Sequence record: PZ452607.1
DNA length: 48,737 nt
DNA from: a phage
Reading direction: 5' to 3' (one strand)
Every line of letters begins with the position of its first letter. Position 1 is the stretch's first letter. The notes beneath the pieces were generated by a model, which was not told where the DNA came from, ran no database searches, and saw only the letters and a list, made by a program, of their open reading frames with translations. Positions 6,106 through 48,174 of the stretch are shown here, in pieces. Made by a program: the position numbers and the translations under genes.

Positions 6106-6124
6106 CATAAAAACACTTTGACGC

Positions 6125-6144
6125 TTTAACAAAAAGTGCTATTA
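6125..6144 (-). promoter_or_regulatory. box copy, antisense orientation, late region
   Basis: Reverse complement reads AATAGCACTTTTTGTTAAAG; no convincing -10 at the usual spacing. Confidence 0.4.
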
Positions 6145-6150
6145 TTGAAG

Positions 6151-6175
6151 CCGTGAACATAATCACGGTTTTTTA
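6151..6175 (+). terminator. intrinsic terminator
   Basis: CCGTGA..TCACGG stem then T6. Confidence 0.6.
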
Positions 6176-6195: not shown

Positions 6196-7155
6196 ATGAC
6201 TACTAAAAAATTTGATGAAGCAGATAAAAGCAATGTTGAAATGTATCTGATCCAGGCTGGCGTAAAACAGGATGCGGCCGCAACGATGGGTATCTGGACC
6301 GCTCAGGAACTACACCGCATCAAAAGCCAGTCCTATGAAGAAGACTACCCGGTCGGCTCAGCTTTACGCGTATTCCCGGTTACAACCGAGCTTTCTCCGA
6401 CCGACAAGACGTTTGAGTATATGACCTTTGATAAGGTTGGTACGGCTCAGATTATCGCAGACTACACCGACGATCTTCCGCTGGTTGATGCCCTGGGTAC
6501 TTCTGAATTTGGCAAGGTGTTCCGTCTTGGTAACGCGTACCTGATCTCAATCGACGAAATCAAAGCGGGTCAGGCAACTGGTCGCCCACTGTCAACCCGT
6601 AAGGCGAGTGCGTGCCAGTTGGCGCATGATCAGCTTGTTAACCGCCTGGTGTTCAAAGGTTCCGCGCCGCACAAGATTGTGTCCGTGTTCAACCATCCGA
6701 ATATCACCAAAATTACCTCTGGTAAGTGGATTGATGTATCTACTATGAAGCCGGAAACTGCGGAAGCTGAGCTAACTCAAGCGATCGAAACCATCGAGAC
6801 GATTACTCGTGGTCAGCACCGCGCAACCAACATCCTGATCCCGCCTTCCATGCGTAAGGTTTTGGCGATTCGTATGCCTGAGACAACCATGTCTTACCTG
6901 GACTATTTTAAGTCTCAGAACTCCGGTATCGAAATCGACTCTATCGCAGAGCTTGAGGATATTGACGGCGCAGGCACCAAAGGCGTACTGGTGTACGAAA
7001 AGAATCCGATGAACATGTCCATCGAGATCCCGGAAGCATTTAACATGCTGCCAGCACAACCGAAAGACTTGCACTTTAAAGTGCCTTGCACCTCTAAGTG
7101 TACTGGTCTTACAATTTATCGCCCGATGACTATTGTCTTAATCACTGGCGTGTAA
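6196..7155 (+). CDS. major capsid protein
   Basis: 319-aa ORF in head module bracketed by strong terminators; size and position fit major capsid subunit. Confidence 0.6.
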   Translation: MTTKKFDEADKSNVEMYLIQAGVKQDAAATMGIWTAQELHRIKSQSYEEDYPVGSALRVFPVTTELSPTDKTFEYMTFDKVGTAQIIADYTDDLPLVDALGTSEFGKVFRLGNAYLISIDEIKAGQATGRPLSTRKASACQLAHDQLVNRLVFKGSAPHKIVSVFNHPNITKITSGKWIDVSTMKPETAEAELTQAIETIETITRGQHRATNILIPPSMRKVLAIRMPETTMSYLDYFKSQNSGIEIDSIAELEDIDGAGTKGVLVYEKNPMNMSIEIPEAFNMLPAQPKDLHFKVPCTSKCTGLTIYRPMTIVLITGV

Positions 7156-7162
7156 TATTATA

Positions 7163-7190
7163 GGGGCTAACTTAGTTAGTCCCTTTTTTT
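7163..7190 (+). terminator. intrinsic terminator after major capsid gene
   Basis: GGGGCTAAC / GTTAGTCCC stem then T7. Confidence 0.6.
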
Positions 7191-8319: not shown

Positions 8320-8755
8320 TTATCAGATTCGTAGATTTCAAGGCGAGATTGATGCGTGGATTAATGCCGCTGAAAGCACGTTAGAACATGCTATTGAGAT
8401 ATTCGTAAGGGATGTTCACGACGCTCTTGTTAGCCGCTCCCCTGTTGATACAGGTCGATTCAAGGGTAACTGGCAGATAACTTTTAACGAAATCCCTAAC
8501 CACGCATTAAACCGATACGATAAAACTGGCGGTGTCGTCAGGGGTGAGGAACAGGCAAAAACTTATGGCATGTTCAGCCGTGGCGGCGCGATAACATCCG
8601 TTCACTTTTCAAACATGTTGATTTATGCAAACGCTCTTGAGTACGGTCATTCACAGCAAGCACCGAGCGGCGTTGTCGGTCTTGTGGCGTTAAGGCTTAG
8701 ATCATATATGGCTGACGCAATCAAGCAGGCAAGGAGACAGCAAAATGCACTATGA
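8312..8755 (+). CDS. neck / tail completion protein (HK97 gp10-like)
   Basis: Motif RFKGNW and ..ALEYG.. remembered from HK97 gp10 family; probable GTG start at 8312 after GGAGG (track ORF extends to 8216); start uncertain. Confidence 0.4.
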   Translation: MANYQIRRFQGEIDAWINAAESTLEHAIEIFVRDVHDALVSRSPVDTGRFKGNWQITFNEIPNHALNRYDKTGGVVRGEEQAKTYGMFSRGGAITSVHFSNMLIYANALEYGHSQQAPSGVVGLVALRLRSYMADAIKQARRQQNAL

Positions 8756-9143
8756 GTTATCAGCGGCGGCGCGAGCCGCTTTTCTATCAAAGTACAGAGA
8801 CTTTCCTCACTACATGGAAAACAGAAATTTCACACCGCCGAAGGATGGCGGGATGTGGCTGAGGTTCAACTACATTGAAGGGGATACGCTTTATCTATCC
8901 ATTGACAGAAAGTGTAAATCTTACATCGCAATCGTTCAGATCGGCGTAGTGTTCCCTCCAGGCTCCGGCGTTGACGAAGCAAGATTGAAAGCAAAAGAGA
9001 TTGCTGATTTTTTCAAAGATGGTAAAATGCTTAACGTTGGTTATATTTTCGAGGGTGCAATCGTGCATCAAATTGTTAAACATGAAAGCGGGTGGATGAT
9101 TCCGGTTCGCTTTACAGTACGAGTAGACACAAAGGAGACTTAA
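8745..9143 (+). CDS. tail terminator-like protein
   Basis: ORF between neck protein and major tail protein. Confidence 0.35.
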   Translation: MHYELSAAARAAFLSKYRDFPHYMENRNFTPPKDGGMWLRFNYIEGDTLYLSIDRKCKSYIAIVQIGVVFPPGSGVDEARLKAKEIADFFKDGKMLNVGYIFEGAIVHQIVKHESGWMIPVRFTVRVDTKET

Positions 9144-9145
9144 TT

Positions 9146-9814
9146 ATGCACTTACCAAATGGCGCACAAATTTTCGTGGAAACCTCTCGCGGGGTAGAGG
9201 TTGAGGCAACCGCTATCACTAACGCAGAAAATCCTGTTGCTACAGTTGCATCTAAGGGTGACTTGGCAAAAGGTGATTACGTTATTGTAACTCAGTCAAC
9301 TTGGGCAAAGATGGTTAGTCGAGTGCTAATTGTTACTGACGCTCAGGAAACAAGTATCACTCTTGCTGGAATTGACACCTCCGATACTCTTGTTTTCCCG
9401 GCTGGCGGCACGATGAGCTTTGCAAAAATTACTGGCTGGACTGAGATCCCTTGCGTACAGGAGATTGGTCAGGACGGCGGCGAGCAGCAGTATTACACTT
9501 ATCAGTGTTTGTCCGACGATAAAGAGCAGCAGATCCCAACGTTTAAATCTGCGGTCTCGCTAACTTACACCTTCGCGCACGAATTTGATAACCCGATCTA
9601 CCCGATTCTGCGCAAGCTGGATTCGTCTGGTCAGGTAACAGCGGTTCGAATGTACGTTCCGAAAGCGAGCGAAATGCGCATGTGGGCTGGCATCTTGTCG
9701 TTTAACGATATCCCATCCACGCAGGTTAACGAAATGGAAACGGTGGAACTCGCCGTATCCCTGAAAGGTGACTTTACTTTCATCTCATCCACTCTGGCAT
9801 CGCCTGGTGCTTAA
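9146..9814 (+). CDS. major tail protein
   Basis: RBS AAGGAGAC before ATG 9146; directly upstream of chaperone/tape measure; followed by hairpin terminator. Confidence 0.55.
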   Translation: MHLPNGAQIFVETSRGVEVEATAITNAENPVATVASKGDLAKGDYVIVTQSTWAKMVSRVLIVTDAQETSITLAGIDTSDTLVFPAGGTMSFAKITGWTEIPCVQEIGQDGGEQQYYTYQCLSDDKEQQIPTFKSAVSLTYTFAHEFDNPIYPILRKLDSSGQVTAVRMYVPKASEMRMWAGILSFNDIPSTQVNEMETVELAVSLKGDFTFISSTLASPGA

Positions 9815-9826
9815 ATACCATCCACA

Positions 9827-9852
9827 GGGGGCTTGCACCCCCTTATTCATTT
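9827..9852 (+). terminator. probable intrinsic terminator after major tail protein
   Basis: GGGGG..CCCCC stem then T-rich tract. Confidence 0.4.
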
Positions 9853-9887
9853 CTGTAAAATCATCTTATCAACTTTATTCGATTAAC

Positions 9888-9907
9888 TTTTAACAAAAAG
9901 TGCTATC
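9888..9907 (-). promoter_or_regulatory. box copy, antisense orientation, late region
   Basis: Reverse complement reads ATAGCACTTTTTGTTAAAAG. Confidence 0.4.
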
Positions 9908-9927
9908 AACCAATCAGGAGAAACATC

Positions 9928-10245
9928 ATGGCTAAATTCAATTTCGTGTTGGGCCAGCTTCCAGACTTCAAACTTCCGGTGACGTTCACCATGCCAAACG
10001 GCGAGGATGCGACTATTATTTTTACAGTACGCCACCTTTCCAGTAAAGAAGTGCAAGATATGTATGCGAAGCAGGGCGAAATGAATGATAGCGATTTCAT
10101 CACTAAGATAGCATCAGGATGGAATCTGGAAGAAGAATTTAACGAAGAGAATACGCGTAAGCTGGTACAGTATTATCCTTCCGCAGCGTACAATCTGACG
10201 GCAACTTACATCAAGGCGCTCGCCGGACACCGCGCAAAAAACTAA
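9928..10245 (+). CDS. tail assembly chaperone (lambda G-like)
   Basis: Small ORF directly upstream of tape measure, ending at slippery heptamer A_AAA_AAC. Confidence 0.6.
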   Translation: MAKFNFVLGQLPDFKLPVTFTMPNGEDATIIFTVRHLSSKEVQDMYAKQGEMNDSDFITKIASGWNLEEEFNEENTRKLVQYYPSAAYNLTATYIKALAGHRAKN

Positions 10246-10562
10246 AAAGGGCGGTTTATCTGTTATATCAGAAACCGCCAACAGAAGAGCAATTAAGATC
10301 GGTTGGCCTCAGTCTTTCTGACTATGAAGACGAGGAACCGGAAACGATAATCGGCGATGCTGAAATGGTGAAGGCGTGGAATGTTTTTACGTCAATGCTC
10401 ACTCAGTGGAGAAGTTCAGGCGCTGGAGCTTATGGTCTTGACTATAATGTTTTGCCTATGTTGTTCAAAATCTATAAAATAGAAGATGAAGAACTGGCAT
10501 TGCAGGACGTTAGGATCATGGAAGCGAAAGCGCTTGAAATGATTGCTAAGCAAAACAACTAA
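9928..10562 (+). CDS. tail assembly chaperone frameshift fusion (lambda G-T-like), produced by -1 shift at 10236-10242
   Basis: -1 frame is open from 10236 through ORF 10365..10562 with no stop; conserved G/GT architecture of tailed phages. Confidence 0.55.
10236..10242 (+). other. -1 programmed frameshift slippery heptamer A_AAA_AAC with downstream stem-loop (10250..10279)
   Basis: Zero-frame codons GCA AAA AAC TAA; stem GGCGGTTT / AAACCGCC begins 7 nt downstream. Confidence 0.55.
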
Positions 10563-10583
10563 GCCGCCGTTTGGCGGTTTTTT
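10563..10583 (+). terminator. intrinsic terminator after chaperone T-domain
   Basis: CCGCC gttt GGCGG then T6. Confidence 0.5.
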
Positions 10584-10602
10584 CGTATATAGGGGGGGTT
10601 AT

Positions 10603-13476
10603 ATGGTTGATAAGGTAGCAGGTCTATCTCTTGACGTTGACGTGTCAACAGTTCAGCGCGCTGTCAAGTCACTGAAAGAGTTTTCAAAGGCCAACGATCA
10701 GGCCGCTGATTCTATGGGTTCTTTAATCAATGAGTCAGAGGTTGCAAAACAGAAGGCCAAAGAACACGCCGAACAACTCAGGCGCCAGAGAAAAGAGTAT
10801 GAGGCCGTGGAGAAGGCAATCGATCCTACAGTATCAAAAATGGAAAGGTTGAAGATTGCATCTCAGCAGCTTGATAAACTCTGGCAGCAGGGAGTCGTTC
10901 CAGATGAGACTTTTTTCCGTTTGGGTGAAATGCTGGATCTGCAAAACGCAAAACTTTCTCGCAGCCGGGCCATGCTGACAGAAGAAGGGCAGGCAGCATT
11001 GCAAGAGGCGAAAGCAAAAGAGCAGGCGGCAGTGCGTAGCAAGGCGTTCATGGATGCCCTGAATGGTCAAGTTAACGCGATCGGTAAGACTCATGCTGAA
11101 TTGATGGAACTGAAAGCGGCTGAGCTTGGTTTATCGAAAGAAGCAGAACCACTAATCGCAAAACTTAAAGATCAAGGCCGGGCTATGAATGCAGCAGGTA
11201 TTAGCGCCGGGGAATACAGACAGGCAATGCGAATGCTTCCTGCGCAGATCACAGATGTCGTAACATCTCTTGCATCCGGTATGCCAGTATGGATGGTTGC
11301 TATCCAACAGGGCGGTCAGATTAAGGATTCGTTCGGCGGGATCGGTAACACGTTTAAAGTGTTGCTGAGTTATATTAATCCGGTCACGGCAGGTGTTGGC
11401 GTTCTTGTTGGTTCGTTAGGTATTCTAGCGAAAGCTGGTTATGACTCTTACAAATCAATAACTGATATTCAGAATGCGCTTATTGAGACTGGAGGTTATG
11501 CAGGTGTTACGGCTGAAGAGCTTGATTCAGTGTCTAAAAAGATCGCGCAGACAAGCAACTCAACCATTGGGAGTATTCGCGAGATTGTAACGGAGTTGGC
11601 GAGTTCTGGTAAGTACACCCGCGAGCAGATCCAGAACATCACTAAGGCTACCGCAGAGTGGTCAGCGTCAACAGGAAAATCAGCAAGTCAAATTATTTCT
11701 GAGTTCGAAAAAATAGCAAGCGATCCGGTAAAAGGACTGAAGAAGTTAAACGAGCAATATAATTTCCTTGAAAAAGGGCAGCTTACCTATATCGATACAT
11801 TAAGCCGGACGAAAGGAGAAACTGAGGCTGTATCAGAGGCTACAAAACTATTCGCAGACGTAATGGAAAAGCGAATGAAGTCGATCGCGGATAACGCTAC
11901 TCCTCTGGAAAAGATGTGGAGCGATATTAAACAATGGGCTTCGGACGCGTGGGGATGGGTTGGTGATCATACACTCGGGGCACTAAACCTGATTATCGAC
12001 GTTGTTCAGGGTACAGTGATTCAGGTTAAAATGATTCTTGCGAAGGGTGATGAATACATCTCAAACTTTATCGCCTCAGCCATAAAGGCAACTCAGTCAC
12101 TGCCTGGAATGAGTGACTTCGGCGCTGATGTACTGAAGGAGCAGGAGAATATTGTAAAAAGTTCTCGCGACAACTACGATCAGTTAGCTTCAGATCTTGA
12201 CGCTATTAACGCTCGTGTAGAAAAAAGCGAGATGGGATACATTGAAGCAATGAGGCAGCGCCGCACCCTTGAAAAGCAGTACAGTGAGGAAACTAAGGAG
12301 GCAATAAGGAAAGAAGCAGAAGAGATCGAGAAGCGAAACCGAGAACGAAATAAGCAGTCGAAAATTGTACGATCACCGACAGAGCAATTCGACAAGGAGT
12401 TAATTTCACTCAGGGCTCAACTTAAGGTATTGCAGGAGCATAAGGAGATCGGTCAAAAACTATCAGCACAGAGAAAGGCGCTGTTTACAACTGAGGCTAC
12501 GATCGCTGTTCTTCGCGAAGCTAGTTCTAAGCGCCAGTTGTCTGCGGAAGAAAAAGCGTTGCTGGCAAGTCAGGAGAGAGTTATTGAGCTTGCGAAACAG
12601 AAGGCCGAGATTGGCGATCAGATTGTTAAGCAACAGCAGTTGAATGATCTTACCGATAAATCTCTGAAGTTTGTCAATGAGATGACGGCGGCGACGGAAC
12701 AGCTTAACGCGTCACGCGGTCTTAGTACTCGCGACATGGAACGACAAGCTGAACTAGCTAAAATCACCACTGATTACATCAACTCCGGCGGCAGCGAAGG
12801 AGACGAGAAACTTCAGAACATGATTAAGGCGCAAAATGATTACTACGCTGCGGAAGATGCCAAGCGAGCTGACTGGTTGGCAGGTGCTGAAAGTGCTTTT
12901 GCTGATTACGGTGATGCAGCAATGGATATGTACGGCAATGTTAACGAGATCGCGTCAAGTGCCCTTAACGGAATGTCAGATATGATGGTTCAATTTCTGA
13001 CCACAGGAAAAGCGAACTTTGAGGACTTTGCGAAAAATATCATCGGCATGATTATAAAGATGATTGCTCAGATGGTAATCTTCAATACGATCTCAGGCAT
13101 GATGGGCGGTAAGACGTGGAGCTTTGCTGGAGGGGCGTCGTCTGGTGCTTCTGCGGCATCACAGGCAACCCCTACACCTGCTGCTTCTGTTTTTAGATCT
13201 GTATCTTCCGGCGGGGCCGCTGTATCACTTGCTGCCGCAGCGGGTAGCGTGGCAACCTCTGGATTCAACGCATCAAACTCGGCGCCAAAGGTGGTAAACC
13301 ATTCAGGAGGTGGAACGGTCGTTGACGTTAGCGGAATGGAGGTGAAAGTTGACAACGGTTCAGATCCGAGGGGGATTTCTCAGGGCGTGGAAATGATGTT
13401 CAAAAAAATGATTCGTGAGTCTTGTTCGCAGGGCGGCGAGGTTTATAATTACATTCAGGAAAAAACAGGAGGCTAA
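10603..13476 (+). CDS. tail tape measure protein
   Basis: 957 aa, coiled-coil-rich, Gly/Ala/Ser-rich C-terminal segment; follows G/GT chaperone; RBS AGGGGGGG. Confidence 0.8.
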
Positions 13477-13478
13477 TA

Positions 13479-13832
13479 ATGGCGACACTTGACACTTTTG
13501 GTTGGTGTACGCAGGTTCAAGGGGGCGGTGGCTCCCTTACCACTACCAACAGCGACCGCTCTATTCAGTTCGGTAACGGGTACATGCAACTTGCATCATC
13601 TGGATTTAACACCACGCGGCGTGAATATTCAGTCGTCTATGCCGGGGAAGATTTCATGGCTGTTTACGACTTCTGCAACTCTCACCGCATTAAGCCGTTC
13701 GCATGGACGCCGCCGGACGGTAAGATCGGGATATGGGTAGTAAAGCCTAACAGTTTGGGAGCGAAGCCAGTATCGCGCGACGTGATGGAGATTAACGTCA
13801 CGTTTATGGAGCAATTTACATCTATGGAGTAA
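13479..13832 (+). CDS. minor tail protein (lambda M-like)
   Basis: Resembles lambda gpM (..YSV..WTPP.. region); gene order TMP-M-L-K-I-J. Confidence 0.65.
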   Translation: MATLDTFGWCTQVQGGGGSLTTTNSDRSIQFGNGYMQLASSGFNTTRREYSVVYAGEDFMAVYDFCNSHRIKPFAWTPPDGKIGIWVVKPNSLGAKPVSRDVMEINVTFMEQFTSME

Positions 13833-13848
13833 CGCCATATAACAAAAG

Positions 13849-13883
13849 CCCGCCTTGCGCGGGTTTTTTTGTAGCTGTAGAAT
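13849..13883 (+). promoter_or_regulatory. terminator hairpin with overlapping sigma70-like promoter (TTGCGC-17-TAGAAT)
   Basis: CCCGCCTTGCGCGGG then T7; -35 lies in hairpin loop; same cassette at 16028..16062. Confidence 0.5.
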
Positions 13884-13911
13884 GGTTGCAGGTAAACAAG
13901 AGGAAAAATCA

Positions 13912-14694
13912 ATGAGCGAAAACAAAAAACTTTATGATGAAGAAAGCGGAAAGAGCCTGTTTCACAACTGCCTTCAATCACTATATCCGGGAGAGATAAT
14001 CACTCTCATCGAAGTTGATGGTAGTAAGTTCGGCGCTCAGGTGTACCGATTCCACGGTGAGAATATCCAGTACACTCCAGAAGAAATCATGCAGGCCCAG
14101 CAAACTGGAACGCTACCGCCGAAGGAAATTACATTCCGTGGCGAGAAATACGGGGCGCGACCGTTCGGTATATCCGGGATCTCGTTTGACAGTTCCGGGA
14201 AGGCAACAAAACCACAATTAACGGTGGCAAACATTGATAGTCGCGTATCTGCGATGATTCGTGCATATAACGGACTAATGCAAGCTAAGGTGACTATCTG
14301 GATAACTCAGCGTGAGCTTATTAACTCCGATGGCTCAATCGCTGATGGAGCTTACCGTAAACTGGTATACTATATCGAGCGTCCGAACTATGTTGATAAA
14401 AGCGTTGCGCGGTTCGATCTCACATCACCTTACGATATGGACGGCATAATGATCCCGTCTCGACTCACGCAAAGCGTATGCTATTTTGCACAACGAGGGT
14501 GGTATAAAACAGGGAAAGGCTGCGGATACAACGGGCAAAATGGTTACTTCGATAAAGACAATAATCCTGTAGACGATCCGTCGCTGGATTTTTGCCCGGG
14601 AACGGTAACGGCCTGCCGCCTGAGATTCGGCGCAAACAATGAATTGGATTTTGGCGGTTGCGCTGTCGCTTCATTACAGAGGAAAAATCAATGA
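13912..14694 (+). CDS. minor tail protein (lambda L-like)
   Basis: PQLTVAN and C-terminal Cys-rich region with DFGG resemble lambda gpL; RBS AAGAGGA. Confidence 0.75.
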   Translation: MSENKKLYDEESGKSLFHNCLQSLYPGEIITLIEVDGSKFGAQVYRFHGENIQYTPEEIMQAQQTGTLPPKEITFRGEKYGARPFGISGISFDSSGKATKPQLTVANIDSRVSAMIRAYNGLMQAKVTIWITQRELINSDGSIADGAYRKLVYYIERPNYVDKSVARFDLTSPYDMDGIMIPSRLTQSVCYFAQRGWYKTGKGCGYNGQNGYFDKDNNPVDDPSLDFCPGTVTACRLRFGANNELDFGGCAVASLQRKNQ

Positions 14695-15425
14695 TTAGTG
14701 CAAAAATTAAACTTGAAATTATGACTCACGCTCAGGAAGAATACCCCCGCGAATGCTGCGGGGTAGTCACCCAAAAGGGCCGCGTGCAAAAATACCATCG
14801 CATTGATAATGTGCATCGTGATCCCGAGAATCATTTCATGATGGATGCTGTACAATACGCTTGCATTGAGGACGATGCGGAATCAACAACAATAGCAATT
14901 GTTCACAGCCACACAGGAGACGGGGCTACAACTCTACCAAGCGCTCACGATACGTGCATGTGCAACGAGATGGAAGTTACCTGGATTATTGTTAGCGTGC
15001 CGGAAGGGGATATGCGATTTGTGAAGCCGGAGAAATTGCCTCTGATTGGTCGTCCGTGGTCATTAGGATCATTCGACTGTTACGGTCTTGTTATGGCGTG
15101 GCACAAAGAGCACGGCGTAGAATTGCGCGATCGCCGATTGAATTTTGAATGGTGGAAACCTGAGTACGGAATTAATCTCTATCAGGATTATTACAAGCAG
15201 GATGGCTTCGTTGAGATTCCAGATCAGAATAATCCGTCATTCGGTGATATGGTAATCATGCAGATAGGGCAAAACGTTCCGGTATGGAACCATGCAGGGA
15301 TTTACCTGGGAGATAATCAGATCTTGCATCATGCCTTCGGCAAGCTATCTCGTCGTGATATTTATTCCGGATGGTATCAGGATCATACTGTTTTAATCGT
15401 TCGCCATAAGGATCTTAAATTATGA
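14691..15425 (+). CDS. tail assembly protein (lambda K-like; JAB/MPN plus NlpC/P60 domains)
   Basis: JAMM-like motifs (E..CCG, HSH) followed by NlpC/P60-like region; ATGA overlap with L-like gene. Confidence 0.75.
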   Translation: MISAKIKLEIMTHAQEEYPRECCGVVTQKGRVQKYHRIDNVHRDPENHFMMDAVQYACIEDDAESTTIAIVHSHTGDGATTLPSAHDTCMCNEMEVTWIIVSVPEGDMRFVKPEKLPLIGRPWSLGSFDCYGLVMAWHKEHGVELRDRRLNFEWWKPEYGINLYQDYYKQDGFVEIPDQNNPSFGDMVIMQIGQNVPVWNHAGIYLGDNQILHHAFGKLSRRDIYSGWYQDHTVLIVRHKDLKL

Positions 15426-16021
15426 ATGATGTAAAAGTAATTAAATTGTCAGGTTCACTTGGGAGACGCTTCGGCGTCTTTCACCGTTACGCTGTTGACT
15501 CTTACCCGGAAGCCATACGGGCGCTATCCAGTCAGGTTGACGGATTTAAAGAATACATGCAAAGCGAGGTAGGATCTCGTAGCAAGTTTGCAATATTTGT
15601 GGATGGCGTTAACGTGGGACACCATGAAGAGGAAAAATTCAAGTGCGCGAAAGAGATAAGAATCGTACCGATCCCTACTGGCTCTAAGACAGGAGGTCTA
15701 TTTCAGGTTGTATTGGGCGCGGCAATAATGGTTGCAGCATTCTATACTGGCGGCGCGTCTCTGGCTTTAATGGGCACAATGTCCTCGTCTCTGTTTATGA
15801 TGGGCGGCGCTATGGTGCTGGGCGGCGTGATGCAGATGATTTCACCGCAGCCGGGTGGCGCAAACTTTGAAGTTCAATCAAGCAAGAATAAACCTTCGTA
15901 CGCGTTCGGCGGTGCTGTCAATACGACGGCGGCGGGATACCCTCTCCCGGTCCCGTATGGATATCGCGCCGGAGGTGGGGCAACTTTCTCAGCAGGTTCT
16001 TATGCCGAGGATATGAGTTAA
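15422..16021 (+). CDS. tail assembly protein (lambda I-like)
   Basis: Overlapping start with K-like gene; hydrophobic Gly/Ala-rich C-terminus; position before J-like gene. Confidence 0.6.
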   Translation: MNDVKVIKLSGSLGRRFGVFHRYAVDSYPEAIRALSSQVDGFKEYMQSEVGSRSKFAIFVDGVNVGHHEEEKFKCAKEIRIVPIPTGSKTGGLFQVVLGAAIMVAAFYTGGASLALMGTMSSSLFMMGGAMVLGGVMQMISPQPGGANFEVQSSKNKPSYAFGGAVNTTAAGYPLPVPYGYRAGGGATFSAGSYAEDMS

Positions 16022-16027
16022 AATTAA

Positions 16028-16062
16028 CCCGCCTTGCGCGGGTTTTTTTTCGCCTGTATAAT
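16028..16062 (+). promoter_or_regulatory. terminator hairpin with overlapping sigma70-like promoter (TTGCGC-17-TATAAT)
   Basis: Identical hairpin CCCGCCTTGCGCGGG then T8 and TATAAT; upstream of J-like gene. Confidence 0.55.
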
Positions 16063-16073
16063 GAGTCCACCGA

Positions 16074-16097
16074 TAAATAGCACAAAAAGGTAAACAT
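16074..16097 (+). promoter_or_regulatory. degenerate box copy in leader of J-like gene
   Basis: ATAGCACAAAAAGGTAAAC; left half-site intact, right degenerate. Confidence 0.3.
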
Positions 16098-16098
16098 C

Positions 16099-19000
16099 AT
16101 GATTCAAAAAGTGATAAGCGGATCTAAAGGTGGGTCACAGAAGCCTCATAACCCAGTTGAGATGGAGGACAATCTAATCTCAATCAACAAAATCAAGATC
16201 CTGTTAGCTGTATCTGATGGTGAAATTGACGAAACATTCAGCCTGAAGCAGTTGATGTTTAACTCAGTCCCGGTGCAAAACGAGGATGGCTCATTTAACT
16301 TCGAGGGAGTAAAGGCAGAGTTCAGACCGGGGACGCAGACTCAGGAATATATCAAGGGAATGGAAGATAGCTCTAGTGAGGTAACTGTAAATCGTGAGGT
16401 TACTACCGATAACCCATACACAATCTCAGTAACCAACAAAACGCTGTCGGCAATCCGTATCAAAATGTTCATGCCTCGCGGCGTACGAATTGAAAGTAAC
16501 GGTGATAAAAATGGCGTAAGAGTTGAGTATGAGGTGCAACAAGCTGTTGATGGCGGCTCGTTTGAGACGGTGCTCACCGATGTAATCGAAGGCAAAACAA
16601 TGTCAGGTTACGATCGAAGCAGACGTGTAAACCTACCTAACTTCAACAATCAGGTGATATTCAGAGTGGTTCGGAAAACTCCAGACTCTAACGACTCGAA
16701 CGTTGTTGACGCGATTCAGGTAAAGAGCTATGCCGAGGTGATTGATGCCAAATTCCGTTATCCGCTGACTGGTCTTCTTTTTGTCGAGTTTGATTCGAAG
16801 ATGTTCCCAAACCAGTTACCTACGATCTCAATTCGTAAGCGCTGGAAGATTGTAAACGTTCCGTCAAACTATGATCCAGAATCACGAACTTATAACGGAA
16901 ATTGGGATGGAACTTTTAAGAAGGCATGGACGAATAATCCGGCCTGGGTGCTTTATGACCTGATGATTAATCAGCGTTATGGCTTGGATCAGAAAGAGCT
17001 TGGTATCGCTGTAGATAAATGGGCGCTCTACGAGGCTGCGCAATATTGCGATCAGATGGTTCCTGATGGGAAGGGCGGGACGGAACCTCGATACCTTTGC
17101 GACGTGATAATCCAGTCTCAGACTGACGCTTACAAGGTTATCCGAGATATTTGCTCAATCTTTCGTGGTATGAGCTTTTGGAATGGTGAGAGCATTTCGG
17201 TAATCATCGACAGGCCGCGTGAACCTGCGTACATCTTCACTAACGACAACGTTGTTAATGGTGACTTCTCCTACACGTTCGCAAGCGAAAAGAGCATGTA
17301 CACGACGTGTAATGTGATGTTTGATGATGAACAAAACATGTATCAGCAGGACGTTGAGCCAGTATTCGATCGTGAGGCTACTCTACGGTTTGGGAACAAC
17401 GTTACGAGCATTACAGCGATCGGTTGCACACGTCGAAGCGAGGCCAACCGACGCGGGAGATGGATTCTGAAAACTAACCTCCGCAGCACTACGGTAAACT
17501 TCGCTACCGGGCTTGAGGGCATGATCCCAACAATCGGAGATGTTGTGGCAATAGCTGATAACTTCTGGTCAAGTAACTTGACAATGAACCTGTCAGGGCG
17601 TTTGCTCGAAGTGTCTGGAAGTCAGATTTTCTTGCCGTTCCGGGTGGATGCACGCGCTGGTGACTTTATTATCGTAAATAAGCCAGATGGCAAGCCTGTG
17701 AAGCGCACAATCTCAAGTGTTAGTGCGGATGGTAAGACTATAGAGGTTAACATTGGCTTTGGCTTTCCTGTGAAGCCTAACACGGTATTCGCTATCGACC
17801 GCACCGACATTGCGTTACAGCAGTACGTCGTGACAAAAATCGATAAGGGCGATGATGATGAGGAATTTACCTACAAAATAACGGCGGTGGAGTACGATCC
17901 TAACAAGTATGATGAGATTGATTACGGAGTTAACATCGACGACCGACCGACGAGCATCGTTGAACCAGATCAGATCCCTAGACCGAAAAATGTGCAAGTA
18001 TCCTCAGAGTCGAGAATCGTCCAGGGGATGAGCGTAGAAACGATGATTGTTAGCTGGGATAAAGTTCCGTACGCTGTTTTCTATGACGTCCAGTGGCGAA
18101 AGGATAACGGTAACTGGCAAAATGTACCGCAGACAGCAAACAAAGAGGTATACGTTGAAGGTATTTACGCTGGCAACTATCAGGTTCGCGTTCGCTCAGT
18201 CGCTGGTTCGGGCACGACTTCAGGCTGGTCAAATATCGTCGCGGCAACGTTGACGGGTAAACAGGGTGAACCGGGCCGAACGATTAACCTCACAGCTACG
18301 GATGATGTTGTTTTTGGTATCCGTACAAAATGGGGGTTCTCTGATGGTTCTGGAGATACAGCCTATACAGAGTTGCAACAGTCACCGGATGGAACAGTGG
18401 ATAACGCAAGTTTGCTTTCTTTGATTCCGTATCCGCAGCATGAGTATTATCACTCACCAATGCCTGGAGGGAATATTGTTTGGTATCGGGTAAGGACGGT
18501 TGACAGGATCGGTAACGTGTCTCAGTGGACTGATTTTGTCAGAGGTATGGCATCAACAAACGTTGACGATATCATTGGGGAGATTTCTGTTGATATCGAA
18601 AACTCACCTGGTTACGAGTGGCTTGTTGATAACGCAACAGACAACGCGGCGCAGAACTCAGCTAACGCAGAGGCAGCAATAGAAAACGCGCTCGCCAATG
18701 ACAAAGACGCGATCTACATGAAGAAGGAGAACGGAAAACGAAAAGCTGAGTACACGAAATCACTGAAACTTATTGCTGATGAGACGCAGGCACGAGTGAC
18801 GGCGATCGAGCAATTGAAGGCAAGTTTTGGCGATCAGATTAGCGCTAGCAACAGCGAGCTGCGTGAGGTTATCGCAACCGAGACTGAAGCACTATCGCGT
18901 GAGATTGACCAGCTTAAGGCTCAGATTGGTGACGATATTCAGGCAAGTCTGACTGATATTCGGGAGGCTATCGCGAACGAGACTGAGGCTAGAACGCAAG

Positions 19001-19518
19001 CTGACTTAACACTTAGCGCGCGGCTTGGAAATAACGAGGCGGCACTTGCTCAAAAACTAGACTCGTGGAGTAACGCGGATTCTACTGGTGCAATGTACGG
19101 TGTCAAGTTGGGTCTGAAATACAACGGCCAGGAATACAGTGCAGGCATGGCTATGTCTCTAGTTGGTTCCGGAGCTGCGGTTAAGGCGCAGATTTTGTTT
19201 GAGGCGTCACGATTTGCCATCATGACTGGAATGAATGGTCAGACTCAGTACCCCTTCGTTGTTGAGAATGGTCAGGTTATTTTAAGTAGCGCGATTATCA
19301 AGAACGGATTCATCACCAACGCAATGATTGGAAACTTCATCCAGTCGAATAACTATGTATTTAACAAGTCCGGATGGAGGCTTGACAAGGGTGGAACATT
19401 CGAAAATTACGGAAGTGACGGTGAGGGTGCAATGAAGCAAACTAATACCACAATATCTGTTAGGGATGCGAGTGGTCGCCTGAGGGTTCAGATTGGCAGG
19501 TTGACTGGCTCATGGTAA
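16099..19518 (+). CDS. tail tip host-specificity protein (lambda J-like central fibre)
   Basis: 1139-aa ORF after K/I homologues with own promoter; coiled segment near C-terminus. Confidence 0.8.
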   Translation: MIQKVISGSKGGSQKPHNPVEMEDNLISINKIKILLAVSDGEIDETFSLKQLMFNSVPVQNEDGSFNFEGVKAEFRPGTQTQEYIKGMEDSSSEVTVNREVTTDNPYTISVTNKTLSAIRIKMFMPRGVRIESNGDKNGVRVEYEVQQAVDGGSFETVLTDVIEGKTMSGYDRSRRVNLPNFNNQVIFRVVRKTPDSNDSNVVDAIQVKSYAEVIDAKFRYPLTGLLFVEFDSKMFPNQLPTISIRKRWKIVNVPSNYDPESRTYNGNWDGTFKKAWTNNPAWVLYDLMINQRYGLDQKELGIAVDKWALYEAAQYCDQMVPDGKGGTEPRYLCDVIIQSQTDAYKVIRDICSIFRGMSFWNGESISVIIDRPREPAYIFTNDNVVNGDFSYTFASEKSMYTTCNVMFDDEQNMYQQDVEPVFDREATLRFGNNVTSITAIGCTRRSEANRRGRWILKTNLRSTTVNFATGLEGMIPTIGDVVAIADNFWSSNLTMNLSGRLLEVSGSQIFLPFRVDARAGDFIIVNKPDGKPVKRTISSVSADGKTIEVNIGFGFPVKPNTVFAIDRTDIALQQYVVTKIDKGDDDEEFTYKITAVEYDPNKYDEIDYGVNIDDRPTSIVEPDQIPRPKNVQVSSESRIVQGMSVETMIVSWDKVPYAVFYDVQWRKDNGNWQNVPQTANKEVYVEGIYAGNYQVRVRSVAGSGTTSGWSNIVAATLTGKQGEPGRTINLTATDDVVFGIRTKWGFSDGSGDTAYTELQQSPDGTVDNASLLSLIPYPQHEYYHSPMPGGNIVWYRVRTVDRIGNVSQWTDFVRGMASTNVDDIIGEISVDIENSPGYEWLVDNATDNAAQNSANAEAAIENALANDKDAIYMKKENGKRKAEYTKSLKLIADETQARVTAIEQLKASFGDQISASNSELREVIATETEALSREIDQLKAQIGDDIQASLTDIREAIANETEARTQADLTLSARLGNNEAALAQKLDSWSNADSTGAMYGVKLGLKYNGQEYSAGMAMSLVGSGAAVKAQILFEASRFAIMTGMNGQTQYPFVVENGQVILSSAIIKNGFITNAMIGNFIQSNNYVFNKSGWRLDKGGTFENYGSDGEGAMKQTNTTISVRDASGRLRVQIGRLTGSW

Positions 19519-19524
19519 TATCAA

Positions 19525-19550
19525 GGGCATCGAGAGATGCCCTTTTCTTT
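19525..19550 (+). terminator. intrinsic terminator after J-like gene
   Basis: GGGCATC gaga GATGCCC then T-rich tract. Confidence 0.55.
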
Positions 19551-22473: not shown

Positions 22474-23121
22474 ATGCAATTATCACCAGAAACAAACGAA
22501 ATCCTTCCCGCACTGTTCAATGCTCGCAATAAATTTGCTAAAGCAAAGAAGGACGCAAAAAACAATCACCTGAAAAATTCATACGCAACTCTTGATGCAA
22601 TGATGGCTGCGGTTAGTCCGGCGCTAACCGACAACGATATTATGATCCTGCAATCAATGCTGGACACCAGCACTGAAACAACCTTCCATCTTGAAACGAT
22701 GCTGATTCACAAATCCGGGCAGTGGGCCAAATTCTTCATGATGATGCCGATTGCAAAGCGCGATCCGCAAGGCGTAGGTTCTGCAATGACGTATGCTCGA
22801 CGTTACTCATTAGCCGCAGCGCTGGGGATTAGCCAGAGTGATGACGATGCTCAGCTTGCAGTGAAATCCGTCAAGGACTGGAAAAAAGAACTTGATGCGT
22901 GTGAAGACATCGAGTCACTGAAAGATGTATGGGCCAACGCTTACCGCCAGACTGACACGGCGAGCAAGTCAATCATTCAGGATCACTACAACGCATTGAA
23001 GGCTAAATTTGAGATCGGTAAAGCTCGCGGCATTCGCCCGGCGCAACCGGAACAGAAAAAACAGGTTGAAGCAACAAGCGCGAAGCCTGTACAATCCCAA
23101 TCAATCACCAACTTCGAATAA
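22474..23121 (+). CDS. Erf-like single-strand annealing protein
   Basis: N-terminal pattern (..KFAKAKKDAKNNHLKNSYATLD..) resembles Erf family; sits between exonuclease and SSB. Confidence 0.5.
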   Translation: MQLSPETNEILPALFNARNKFAKAKKDAKNNHLKNSYATLDAMMAAVSPALTDNDIMILQSMLDTSTETTFHLETMLIHKSGQWAKFFMMMPIAKRDPQGVGSAMTYARRYSLAAALGISQSDDDAQLAVKSVKDWKKELDACEDIESLKDVWANAYRQTDTASKSIIQDHYNALKAKFEIGKARGIRPAQPEQKKQVEATSAKPVQSQSITNFE

Positions 23122-23651: not shown

Positions 23652-25838
23652 CTACGTATTTTTTAAGCTTTCAACAAACTCTCCAGATACCATTCTTTCA
23701 TGATTTCTTTTGCACTCTTCAACCTTCTTGTTGTAAATCGAGTCATTAGGCATCTCAACTCGAACGCTAACAAAAACATCACTCGGAATGTCAATAGGAT
23801 CTCCGTCGCTATACCCATCCTTATGATTTCTTGCGAATGAAGGCGCGTTATCATGAGTTCTATGATAAGTCTTGATAACCAAAGACCCATCAGGGTTAAC
23901 ATCATAATCTACCCACAATATAGGCTGTCCGTTAATGTCTTTTGGTATCTCTATACCACCATTAACACCACCCCACGCTAGATCAGAATTTAGTGATAAA
24001 CACCCCCTTATCAAATACTCGCCAGTAGAAATCCTCTCAACTGTACAACCTTCGCTCTCGTCGTTTGTTCTATGGCTCCCGTTGCCAAAAATATCAACGA
24101 TGGGCGAGGCTCTTTTTATAAATCCGTTAGAGTCAACGGTTGTATTGCCTGTATTCCATATAACCTGGGTAGATTGCCATTGCCCCGCTCCTGTCTGTTT
24201 TCTGAGCCTCACATCCTTATAGTGTGGAGAGGTCATTGATGCGTCTTCAATAACAAAACCGAAAGCACTACCATCTCCTTGACCGTTTCTATGACGAACA
24301 GATATAGCTGTGACCCATCCAACAGAATTAACATTGTAACTTGCAAGGCTGCTAGGCTGAGATGATAAGGCGTTAACATAATCTACCCAGCTTGATTTCT
24401 CGTTAGATGCCGGACTTGATACAACGTTACCGGAAGAACTTGCCTGAAACGGTATCCACGGAGAAAACTTTGCATTATTGCCGTTTTTCATCCTTATGTA
24501 AAAAGTGCCGCGACCCGCTCTTGCGTATTCGTTTTGAGAATTTCCAGATTCTGGGTCAGTACCCAAATAAGTAAAAGGCGTAAATCTCTGAATGCAAGCG
24601 CTTGCACCGTTAGCTCCATTAGGAAGAACCTCAAGCATACCTGCCGTAGCCTCAGGATAGCCCCTACTAGCGGTAGCTAAAGCACTTGATGATTGCATAT
24701 ATATTCCAGGGCCATCACCTTCACCAGTTATTGAATCAAGATGTTTTTCCCCTAAGTTAGTTCTATCAAGTTTGTAAACCTTTAGGCTTGTCCTTGCCTG
24801 CTCCTCGGTAGTTCCACCAGTGCCACCAAAATTAACCCCTAGAGCCTTGTTTTCACTTCCATCATGAGTCATGGCGCCCCAGTCGCCGCTATCCTTGACT
24901 ATCAGCTTAAATCCGGTCCTATCGTCATTTGAATAGATTTCCGTTAAATCTCCGCGAGGTTGATTTAATCTATTTACTGCTAGATTTTTCTTTGATTGCT
25001 CCTTGTCAGCAAGGCCAGAAAGATTTCCGTCCTTAGTTAAAAGATTGTCAGCATTAACGCTATTTGCTGCGTCCTGAGCTTCCTGAGCACTTACCGCTGC
25101 CGCGTCTTTAGCGCTAACCGCCGCATCGCGTGCTGCCTGGGCATCGTTTTTTGCTGAGGTTGCAGTTTGCGCCGCAGTCTGAGCATCATTAACATAGCCA
25201 GATAGATCGCCTTTAGCGTCATTGATTGCCTGAATGGCCGCCGCCTCTTCAGAGTTAATATGCGTAACGGCTGAATTTTCTTTTTGCTGCACATTAGTGA
25301 TAGCCTTGTCTTTTGCTGCATTAATGCTACCAATAGCGCTATCTGAGATTTGCTGCGTCTGGTTTTTTATTGAGATAGACTCGTCACGCGCTGAATTAGC
25401 TGAGTCGCGAGCAAGCTCCGCTTGATTCTGCGCAGCTTCTGCGGCTGATTTGTTTGACTTAATTTCTTGAACGATATTGTTCAGGTTGTCCATATCAAGA
25501 TCGGCAATAATATCCAATGCCGATGCGATCTCAGTCTCTTTGCTCTGGTAGTACCGAAGCGTCTCAGCGACGTTTTGCGCAAGACCGTTAACGGTCAATG
25601 AATCGTTAAGCAAGATCACATACTTACCGTCAGCGGCAGTCTGACCATCCGTAGAGATAGCCTTTAGCTCTGTGTCGCTCACAATGTCGCTGATTACCGC
25701 CAGTTTAATTGGTTGCTCCAGGAATACGATAGTTGCACCGACTCGAATCAGAGCAAGCTGATCTTTCCATTTTGTATCGGTTCCGTGAACCGTACCGTCT
25801 GCATCCATTGATGCAGTACCGCGTCTATATAAAGCCAT
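23652..25838 (-). CDS. tail fibre protein
   Basis: 728 aa; Ala/Gln/Ser-rich repetitive fibrous middle region and Gly-rich C-terminal domain; own promoter. Confidence 0.6.
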   Translation of the reverse strand: MALYRRGTASMDADGTVHGTDTKWKDQLALIRVGATIVFLEQPIKLAVISDIVSDTELKAISTDGQTAADGKYVILLNDSLTVNGLAQNVAETLRYYQSKETEIASALDIIADLDMDNLNNIVQEIKSNKSAAEAAQNQAELARDSANSARDESISIKNQTQQISDSAIGSINAAKDKAITNVQQKENSAVTHINSEEAAAIQAINDAKGDLSGYVNDAQTAAQTATSAKNDAQAARDAAVSAKDAAAVSAQEAQDAANSVNADNLLTKDGNLSGLADKEQSKKNLAVNRLNQPRGDLTEIYSNDDRTGFKLIVKDSGDWGAMTHDGSENKALGVNFGGTGGTTEEQARTSLKVYKLDRTNLGEKHLDSITGEGDGPGIYMQSSSALATASRGYPEATAGMLEVLPNGANGASACIQRFTPFTYLGTDPESGNSQNEYARAGRGTFYIRMKNGNNAKFSPWIPFQASSSGNVVSSPASNEKSSWVDYVNALSSQPSSLASYNVNSVGWVTAISVRHRNGQGDGSAFGFVIEDASMTSPHYKDVRLRKQTGAGQWQSTQVIWNTGNTTVDSNGFIKRASPIVDIFGNGSHRTNDESEGCTVERISTGEYLIRGCLSLNSDLAWGGVNGGIEIPKDINGQPILWVDYDVNPDGSLVIKTYHRTHDNAPSFARNHKDGYSDGDPIDIPSDVFVSVRVEMPNDSIYNKKVEECKRNHERMVSGEFVESLKNT

Positions 25839-38512: not shown

Positions 38513-38545
38513 TTTTGATTCCTTTGTTTTGTTTGGTATGGGAGT

Positions 38546-38592
38546 AATATACCTTACTCCCCGATGTGTGTCTTTAGCAATTTGTGCTATCA
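38546..38592 (-). promoter_or_regulatory. box + hairpin + -10 element
   Basis: Minus strand GATAGCACAAATTGCTAAAG, about 22 nt, (G)TATATT; stem GGGGAGTA/TACTCCC. Confidence 0.45.
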
Positions 38593-38733
38593 GCACTCAG
38601 AAATTACTTTACACTCTTTGATCGTGCCGCCGAGAACTACCTTTTGCATCATTGCTTTTTGGCGACTATCGTAAACGCGAACATTTTTTACGCTGTTAAA
38701 CTTTCCTGTATAGAAAGTGTGAACATAAATCAT
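38590..38733 (-). CDS. small hypothetical protein (47 aa)
   Basis: ATGA overlap with upstream gene stop; own stop lies inside a box copy; not in ORF track. Confidence 0.3.
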   Translation of the reverse strand: MIYVHTFYTGKFNSVKNVRVYDSRQKAMMQKVVLGGTIKECKVISEC

Positions 38734-41895: not shown

Positions 41896-42065
41896 TGCGG
41901 ATTCTGATTTGCATGATGGCGGCGGTCGCCATGGCTATCCTGGTAGTGTCCGGCTGCGGCGAGGCCAGGGATAGCTGTCATGAAACCGGGAGCCAGGTTA
42001 CTACTTTCGTGATGGTTGGCAACGTATTGCTACCAATAACATCAAATGAAATCACTTGCGAATAG
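41892..42065 (+). CDS. small lipoprotein (57 aa)
   Basis: Signal peptide with lipobox VVSGC; start overlaps stop of preceding peptide; stop inside a box copy. Confidence 0.4.
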   Translation: MMRILICMMAAVAMAILVVSGCGEARDSCHETGSQVTTFVMVGNVLLPITSNEITCE

Positions 42066-43182: not shown

Positions 43183-43331
43183 TGACTGCATGGGTCTTGA
43201 TTATCTTGATGAGCAAAGGTCCGGATCACGTATACATGGAAAGTCAACAATCATGCAACAAGGCACGGGAAGTTATCGCAGAGAACAAGCCGTTCGGATA
43301 TGAAGTAAAAACTATGTGCGTTAAACGATAG
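43182..43331 (+). CDS. small hypothetical protein (49 aa)
   Basis: ATGA coupling with previous gene; N-terminal hydrophobic stretch; stop TAG inside box. Confidence 0.3.
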   Translation: MTAWVLIILMSKGPDHVYMESQQSCNKAREVIAENKPFGYEVKTMCVKR

Positions 43332-43371
43332 CACGAATTGCTAAACCTTCCGCAAGGCCATTTGATATAGT
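43327..43371 (+). promoter_or_regulatory. box + hairpin + extended -10 element
   Basis: GATAGCACGAATTGCTAAAC, 22 nt, TGaTATAGT; stem GGCCA/TGGCC. Confidence 0.55.
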
Positions 43372-43411
43372 GGCCTTATTGAAGCACGACAACCAACTGG
43401 AGGTAAAATTT

Positions 43412-48114: not shown

Positions 48115-48156
48115 CCCGCTCCGGCGGGTTTTTTTATGCCTGCAATATGGTAAAAT
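48115..48156 (+). promoter_or_regulatory. terminator hairpin then extended -10 promoter (TGgTAAAAT) upstream of terminase small subunit
   Basis: CCCGC tccg GCGGG then T7 (same family as 13849/16028 hairpins); TGGTAAAAT at 48148..48156. Confidence 0.45.
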
Positions 48157-48174
48157 AGCACTAAATGTTAAACA
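48156..48174 (+). promoter_or_regulatory. degenerate box copy in leader of terminase small subunit gene
   Basis: ATAGCACTAAATGTTAAAC directly after the extended -10. Confidence 0.35.

Follow-up and report, generated by a model that had tools for sequence, protein, structure and literature searches.

The DNA analysed here (sequence record PZ452607.1; 48,737 nucleotides of one strand, 5' to 3', called the window below) is that of Escherichia phage T1, and our subject is a pair of intergenic sites in its tail-gene block at which a terminator hairpin overlaps a putative sigma-70 promoter. The genes around the sites run in the order tape measure, M-like, L-like, K-like, I-like and J-like, with site 1 in the M/L gap and site 2 in the I/J gap (Table 1). 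From 13000 to 17000 the window is 100% identical to T1 (AY216660, NC_005833, MK213796), T1 position 8945 being window position 1, and there are a few single-base differences. The window has 48,737 bases to the 48,836 of AY216660, differs from it by at least one base substitution (window 1699) and has its terS-proximal part shifted by 99 bases, so that it represents a T1 isolate or assembly slightly unlike that of the record.

Both sites carry the same hairpin, CCCGCCTTGCGCGGG. The original prediction that hairpin and T-run are duplicated identically at 13849 and 16028 is exact: no other match occurs in the window at up to two mismatches (0.06 expected), and two matches were reached in 0 of 100 shuffles. 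The exact repeat common to the two sites is 22 nt long, within an alignable repeat of 45 nt at 80% identity (13840-13884 against 16019-16063) that stretches from the stop codon upstream as far as the -10 hexamer, which it includes. At site 1 the hairpin begins 17 nt past the M stop codon and its stem is lengthened by A/U pairs to 13844-13868; at site 2 it begins 7 nt past the I stop codon and the stem reaches 16026-16044. The coordinates likewise bear out a -35-like TTGCGC in the hairpin, made up of loop bases and two bases of the 3' arm and separated by 17 nt from TAGAAT or TATAAT.

The features by which intrinsic terminators are recognised are present at sites 1 and 2, namely a GC stem of at least 5 bp, a 5-nt loop, an adjoining U-tract and a sense-strand intergenic position just past a stop codon, all late genes being on this strand. 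In the T1 records AY216660 and NC_005833 these two hairpins, and a third before the terminase small subunit gene terS (site 3), are annotated as rho-independent terminators (AY216660 features 22793-22816, 24972-24994 and 8322-8344 for sites 1, 2 and 3), and equivalent terminators are annotated in many relatives. Reportedly, the publication tied to the T1 records is that of Roberts, Martin and Kropinski from 2004 (PMID 14972552). No promoter feature lies between the hairpins of sites 1 to 3 and the next gene in the T1 or relative records that we inspected, and the T1 records make no mention of a -35 in the loop. In the account of phage TLS, the homologues of these hairpins (T46, T49 and T28) are entered as terminators only (PMC11447400). 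The terminator half of the sites is thus already known, and the promoter half is predicted with good support but has no counterpart in current annotations.

The T1 late region has been described as a series of "transcriptons", modules having rho-independent terminators at both ends and provided with RpoD-dependent promoters (PMC11447400). The sites express the same idea of terminator-bounded late units, each with a host-type promoter; what the present analysis adds is that the two elements physically overlap, that their geometry is one of 17 nt and that they are conserved throughout the family. We consider it likely, judging from sequence and its conservation, that sites 1 and 2 are each a composite of an intrinsic terminator and a sigma-70 promoter. 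The feature is real and probably functional, and would be a modest variant of known elements.

As a side observation, the sequence from ribosome-binding site (RBS) to start codon (AGAGGAAAAATCAATGA) is nearly shared by the L and K genes (13898-13918 and 14677-14697), and a similar third stretch lies within the I gene (15627-15647).

Table 1. Window positions of the genes, sites and motifs discussed (all on the plus strand)
Feature	Position	Details
M-like protein gene	13479-13832	stop codon 13830-13832
Site 1 (M/L) terminator hairpin	13849-13863	CCCGC-CTTGC-GCGGG; RNA fold -13.7 kcal/mol, z = -3.3
Site 1 putative -35	13855-13860	TTGCGC: loop TTGC and first two 3'-arm bases
Site 1 U-tract	13864-13870	7 T; also part of promoter spacer
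Site 1 putative -10	13878-13883	TAGAAT, 17-nt spacer after TTGCGC
Site 1 predicted start	near A13890	
Site 1 RBS	13900-13903	GAGG
L-like protein gene	13912-14694	start codon 13912
I-like protein gene	15422-16021	stop codon 16019-16021
Site 2 (I/J) terminator hairpin	16028-16042	15 nt, same as site 1; RNA fold -12.8 kcal/mol, z = -3.4
Site 2 putative -35	16034-16039	TTGCGC, loop and 3' arm
Site 2 U-tract	16043-16050	8 T, within promoter spacer
Site 2 putative -10	16057-16062	TATAAT, 17-nt spacer after TTGCGC
Site 2 predicted start	near A16069	
21-nt direct repeat copy	16075-16095	AAATAGCACAAAAAGGTAAAC; in predicted J leader, overlapping RBS; DR8 of phage TLS (PMC11447400)
J-like protein gene	16099-19518	start codon 16099
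Site 3 (before terS) terminator	48115-48135	CCCGC-TCCG-GCGGG and 7 T; CCCGCTCCGGCGGG 48115-48128, T-run 48129-48135; RNA fold -12.8 kcal/mol, z = -3.8
Site 3 extended -10-like motif	48148-48156	TGgTAAAAT without -35; terS start codon 48189
V/G module (major tail/chaperone)	9826-9861	loop-embedded; hairpin AGGGGGCTTGCACCCCCT 9826-9843, TTGCAC 9833-9838, 17-nt spacer, TAAAAT 9856-9861
Mirror layout before major capsid gene	6118-6171	TTGACG (6118), 16-nt spacer, TATTAT (6140-6145), hairpin from about 6148-6151, T-run, RBS
Mirror layout after major capsid gene	7133-7183	TTGTCT, 17-nt spacer, TATTAT (7156-7161), hairpin 7163-7183
Mirror layout after J	19493-19542	TTGGCA, 17-nt spacer, TAATAT (19516-19521), hairpin 19525-19542; T1 only
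Mirror layout, terL/portal	1594-1621	TATAAT 1594-1599, hairpin 1602-1621, T-run, RBS; weak -35 (TGGTTA)

Putative promoter signals in and beyond the hairpins

How good are the putative promoters? We scored all positions on both strands of the window (97,414) with a sigma-70 matrix that uses the textbook frequencies of Hawley and McClure, in place of a simple promoter scan needing 4 of 6 matches per hexamer, which skips sites 1 and 2. Site 2 ranked 9th and site 1 19th, and the empirical probability of a same-strand sigma-70-like site this strong near a randomly placed interval was 0.007 for site 2 and 0.013 for site 1. Compared with the canonical sigma-70 promoter (TTGACA, 17 nt, TATAAT), the -10 agrees at five or all six positions, the length of 17 nt is that of the consensus spacer and the TTG is present, whereas the last three -35 positions mismatch and the T1 spacer is mostly T-run. 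TAGAAT and TATAAT both have the A at position 2 and the T at position 6 that mark a -10. A TG abuts the hexamer at each site (CTG-TAGAAT, CTG-TATAAT), missing the register of an extended -10 (TGnTATAAT) by one position.

For the comparison with relatives, the surroundings of the L gene were taken from 80 Drexlerviridae loci, whose L proteins are between 100% and 63% identical to that of T1. In motif-blind MAFFT alignments of diverged representatives (17 for I/J and 13 for M/L; mean column identity 59-62%), TA.AAT of the -10 is invariant at I/J, and at M/L A..AT is invariant with the first T at 90%; the other invariant columns are the loop T.G and the T-run. The -10 positions that do vary among relatives are the third and fourth (TATAAT, TACAAT, TAGAAT, TATGAT), which are the least constrained positions of the sigma-70 -10 consensus. 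When unique module sequences from three junctions (M/L, I/J and V/G, the last between the major tail and chaperone genes) were taken together, TTG stood exactly 17 nt 5' of the -10 in 62 of 87, at 16 or 18 nt in four more, and at 17 nt in 19 of the 30 distinct stem classes, counts which overstate the number of independent events, the compared sequences being related. Most clades retain the TTG at 17 nt. At the M/L junction of Webervirus the hairpin is wholly different (GCGCCC/GGGTGC), yet TTTACG-17-TATGAT is retained.

Several points weigh against a promoter at these sites, the relatedness just mentioned among them. The -35 TTGCGC matches the consensus at 3 of 6 positions, the TTG only, and TTGC-type loops are also found in T1 terminators without a downstream -10 (20559, 23597), so what hairpins favour may account in part for the TTG of the loop. 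The constant 17-nt spacings mostly reflect a lack of indels and not demonstrated compensation, and at the I/J junction of Webervirus there is no TTG at the -35. Constitutive sigma-70 promoters inside a late operon would also pose a question of timing. Our literature search returned no 5' or 3' end mapping, reporter assay or in vitro transcription for sites 1 and 2, and no transcript mapping in T1 or Drexlerviridae.

Could the sites then be terminators only, their hexamers being by-products of common loops and of the AT-rich sequence that follows T-runs, without promoter activity? The 3-of-6 match of the -35, the TTGC loops of other T1 terminators and the absence of an annotated promoter in the records inspected all fit this explanation, as does the TLS reannotation, in which a strict 2-mismatch rule called no promoter after the equivalent T46 and T49 and the transcriptons could not be confirmed (PMC11447400). 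What it leaves unexplained is that the TA..AT positions are invariant across clades where the flanking intergenic columns vary, that three junctions share one architecture with the spacing described above, and that sites of this strength are rare by the empirical test. Nor do the RBS-abutting and operon-end terminators (20559, 23597, 34923) have a -10-like hexamer past the T-run. We therefore regard an exclusive terminator role as unlikely.

Pairing in the sense RNA and the origin of the duplicate

A GC hairpin with a T-run occurs at both M/L and I/J in nearly all of the 80 loci, with stems that differ, and all 30 stem classes from the three junctions stay paired. At sites 1 and 2 the RNA folds range from -12.8 to -13.7 kcal/mol (z about -3.3 against shuffles), and the columns of the T-run show little or no variation among relatives. 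RNAalifold was uninformative, giving spurious structure or none on the MAFFT alignments (A1 and A2), in which stems of unequal length had been misaligned, and per-sequence hairpin calls with a test of strand asymmetry were used in its place. Rfam 15 covariance models run over 9700-16300 gave two chance-level matches only (E = 0.13 and 0.8), far under the gathering scores.

Among 52 unique hairpins, 33 G.U pairs were counted in the folds of the sense strand and 1 in those of the antisense, a tally to be read with the bias in stem boundaries that arises from a hairpin finder permitting G-T pairs on the plus strand only; despite this bias, internal wobble pairs are unambiguous in seven stem classes. 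In stability the sense folds exceed the antisense folds by a mean of 1.44 kcal/mol (Wilcoxon p = 0.003). Together the G.U counts and the difference in stability indicate selection on the sense transcript. The asymmetry is as such selection predicts, and points away from a palindrome bound as DNA by a protein.

A second alternative is that the promoter is real and the hairpin mainly protects the RNA 3' end, or forms a barrier to processing, and stabilises the upstream mRNA with little true termination. The shortness of the stems (5 GC pairs), the many similar late hairpins that directly abut an RBS, where strong termination seems costly, and the comparable hairpin in the I/J gap of phage lambda are all compatible with such a role. 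However, the stem is adjoined by a perfect tract of 7 to 8 U, a feature that defines intrinsic terminators and is needless for protection from exonucleases, and the T-run is conserved. The two roles are not mutually exclusive, but protection as the main role is, in our judgement, decidedly improbable. Lastly, an inverted repeat acting as the DNA operator of a dimeric phage regulator that controls the promoter through its -35 would suit a perfect palindrome overlapping that element in a phage encoding several helix-turn-helix proteins, but we rejected it as extremely improbable on the G.U asymmetry, since a half-site model does not predict internal G.U pairs of the sense RNA alone in seven stem classes, while stem sequences vary freely between clades with pairing kept and a T-run always follows.

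One relative (locus L010, IMGVR_UViG_2974611450, Shigella phage vB_SsoS_008-like) has an I/J hairpin that is destroyed (CCCGCTCCGCATTCA) next to an intact T-run, TATAAT and leader. This may be a variant that naturally lacks the terminator, or else an error of sequencing.

How did T1 come to have the same hairpin twice? Identical M/L and I/J hairpins are a trait of the Tunavirus clade, and in the other clades the M/L hairpin (GCCGC...GCGGC) is unlike that of I/J (CCCGC...GCGGG); that T1 and its close relatives have 22 identical nt therefore appears to be a derived state. It would be explained most simply by short-patch copying from I/J into M/L. In some relatives insertions of about 500 bp lie exactly at these junctions (L041 and L042, with an I/J gap of 563 nt, and L051, with an M/L gap of 508 nt). 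They possibly hold a small extra gene, for example a homing endonuclease, and suggest that the two junctions are insertion points.

The homologous tail-gene junction of lambda offers an outside comparison. The lambda I/J gap is 60 nt long, with a GC hairpin, CCGCCTGCGGGCGG, followed by the T-rich TTTTGTCATTT; unlike in T1, there is no -10-like hexamer after the hairpin, and the lambda M and L genes overlap, leaving no M/L gap. Lambda transcribes its late genes from a single promoter, which is Q-antiterminated. Since lambda has the I/J hairpin without the -10, the hairpin may be older than the promoter. The lambda record that we retrieved lists no feature in this gap (L218 2445-2505, which is lambda 15445-15504).

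Related arrangements elsewhere in the window

The original prediction had placed a third relative of the twin sites before terS, and this held in part. The hairpin, the T-run and TGgTAAAAT are all there, but the design is a different one with no -35 in the loop: the -10 begins 22 nt past the stem, the position 17 nt upstream of it is in the T-run, and the sigma-70 matrix ranks the site worse than 1000. In relatives the hairpin and T-run are kept with a varying loop (TTCG, TACG, CTCG), and TGnTAAAAT is kept in three clades with n being g, c or a, which fits an extended -10; this conservation is thinly sampled, as the terS relatives comprise 17 loci only, mostly close ones. A distant relative (L099) does have the loop-embedded design at terS, TTGCGG-18-TATAAT.

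The M/L and I/J pair is nevertheless part of a wider system, which comprises a further loop-embedded copy at V/G and mirror layouts elsewhere. At V/G the T-run is poor in T1 and proper in relatives, and the hairpin is annotated as a terminator in NC_005833 (18770-18796); across 53 loci around the major tail gene the module is kept with many different stems and the same 17-nt spacing. In the mirror layouts the order is reversed, the promoter ending 0-5 nt 5' of the hairpin and the T-run abutting the RBS, so that the predicted start falls within the 5' arm. Both promoters flanking the capsid gene are kept in 63 loci around that gene, and downstream of it TTGnnn-17-TAnnAT is held just before the hairpin despite indels and a shifted stop codon. 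The promoter upstream of the capsid gene is already annotated in AY216660 (15062-15089), and the terL/portal hairpin is annotated as a terminator in NC_005833 (10545-10573). Taking T1 as a whole, a promoter on the same strand lies near 9 of 18 terminator hairpins at an empirical p < 0.04 (Mann-Whitney p = 0.0009), and the same test found none near the three operon-end terminators (20559, 23597, 34923).

A second kind of sequence accompanies some of these sites. T1-like phages carry a 21-nt direct repeat, aaATAGCACnnnTTGnTAAAA, which has been described for phage TLS (PMC11447400). It is present in sites 2 and 3 (48153-48173), the latter copy overlapping the site 3 hexamer with its 5' end, and absent from site 1. 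Its motif, ATAGCAC-5 bases-G-1 base-TAAA, has 21 copies in the window at up to one mismatch against 0.26 expected; examples are at 6125-6142 and 9889-9906 (minus strand), 16077-16094, 27401, 29910 and 41243, with further copies at 42062, 43328, 44137, 44657, 46324 and 48155. The repeat is co-directional with the genes in the early regions, and two late-region copies are inverted. An inverted copy makes up the 16-nt spacer and the first three -10 bases of the promoter that precedes the capsid gene (TTGACG c-TTTAACAAAAAGTGC-TATTAT), which gives a TGc extended -10, and this arrangement is kept in loci L154-L214, even in Webervirus (TTTAGCAATTCGTGCTATTCT). Some 10 nt beyond two early-region copies (38520-38620, minus strand, and 43320-43390) there is a stem-loop (GGGAGTAA...TTACTCCC and AAGGCCA...TGGCCTT). 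We also considered TTGnTA of the repeat as the -35 of early promoters and rejected it, there being no -10 at 16-18 nt downstream in two copies inspected by eye. The placement of the repeat suggests a DNA site for a regulator within or beside promoters.

Implications for late transcription

If sites 1 and 2 are composites, two ordinary signals would share about 35 bp of DNA at each. In the incoming RNA the GC hairpin and U-tract would act as an intrinsic terminator and halt part of the polymerase arriving from the upstream late genes, whereas in the DNA duplex TTGCGC would serve as the -35, the T-run would fill the 17-nt spacer and TAGAAT or TATAAT would be the -10. Termination would then happen with polymerase located between the -35 and -10 elements of the promoter that follows. 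The restart would come about 7 nt past the -10, beyond the whole hairpin, so the new transcript could not terminate itself. In both geometries, loop-embedded and mirror, the new transcript would lack a complete hairpin, so that only incoming transcripts would be stopped.

The proposal that such sites terminate transcription and re-initiate it within a few tens of base pairs thus fared unevenly, the terminators being already annotated, the promoters at sites 1 and 2 gaining support from the comparison of relatives, and the terS site not being of the same design. That transcript levels would be reset between structural gene blocks, as was also proposed, is something we infer from this layout. 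The likely effect would be to uncouple the amounts of tail-tip mRNA (L-K-I, then J) from those of the heavily transcribed upstream genes, the late region of about 21 kb with its approximately 11 terminators being expressed as a chain of units.

Where would the restarting polymerase come from? Once intrinsic termination has released the RNA, the polymerase of E. coli is able to remain bound to the DNA and to begin anew at promoters close by (PMC6978380), and a recent preprint discusses combined terminator-promoters in light of such recycling (bioRxiv 10.64898/2026.02.12.705533). The T1 sites likewise use one short sequence for both roles, but the work cited deals with templates for single-molecule study and with T7 class II (hairpin-less) terminators, whereas the T1 sites are natural, of the hairpin type and conserved in a phage family. 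Our literature search found no direct natural precedent for a -35 inside a terminator loop. That T1 makes use of recycling is speculation. A bolder possibility, which we hold to be rather doubtful, is that the Drexlerviridae late operon is run as a relay and not by antitermination, with a sigma-70 promoter joined in either of the two geometries to almost every internal terminator and recycling after termination handing polymerase on to the next unit. For the relative TLS it is reported that no phage RNA polymerase or sigma gene was found, and no protein search for these or for an antiterminator was made on the T1 window.

Should the promoters prove inactive, the sites would be just the terminators already annotated. 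If they are active, they would supply compact natural parts of about 45 bp that insulate and restart transcription, and the preprint cited above treats combined terminator-promoters as surprising, which would make a natural example of the hairpin type, conserved throughout a phage family, a useful test bed, recycling included. T1-like phages are common contaminants and also candidates for therapy, and their late transcription has so far been described only in silico. Composite sites of this kind would explain how a late region of 21 kb that carries about 11 intrinsic terminators is expressed, and would explain the low stoichiometry of the tail-tip proteins.

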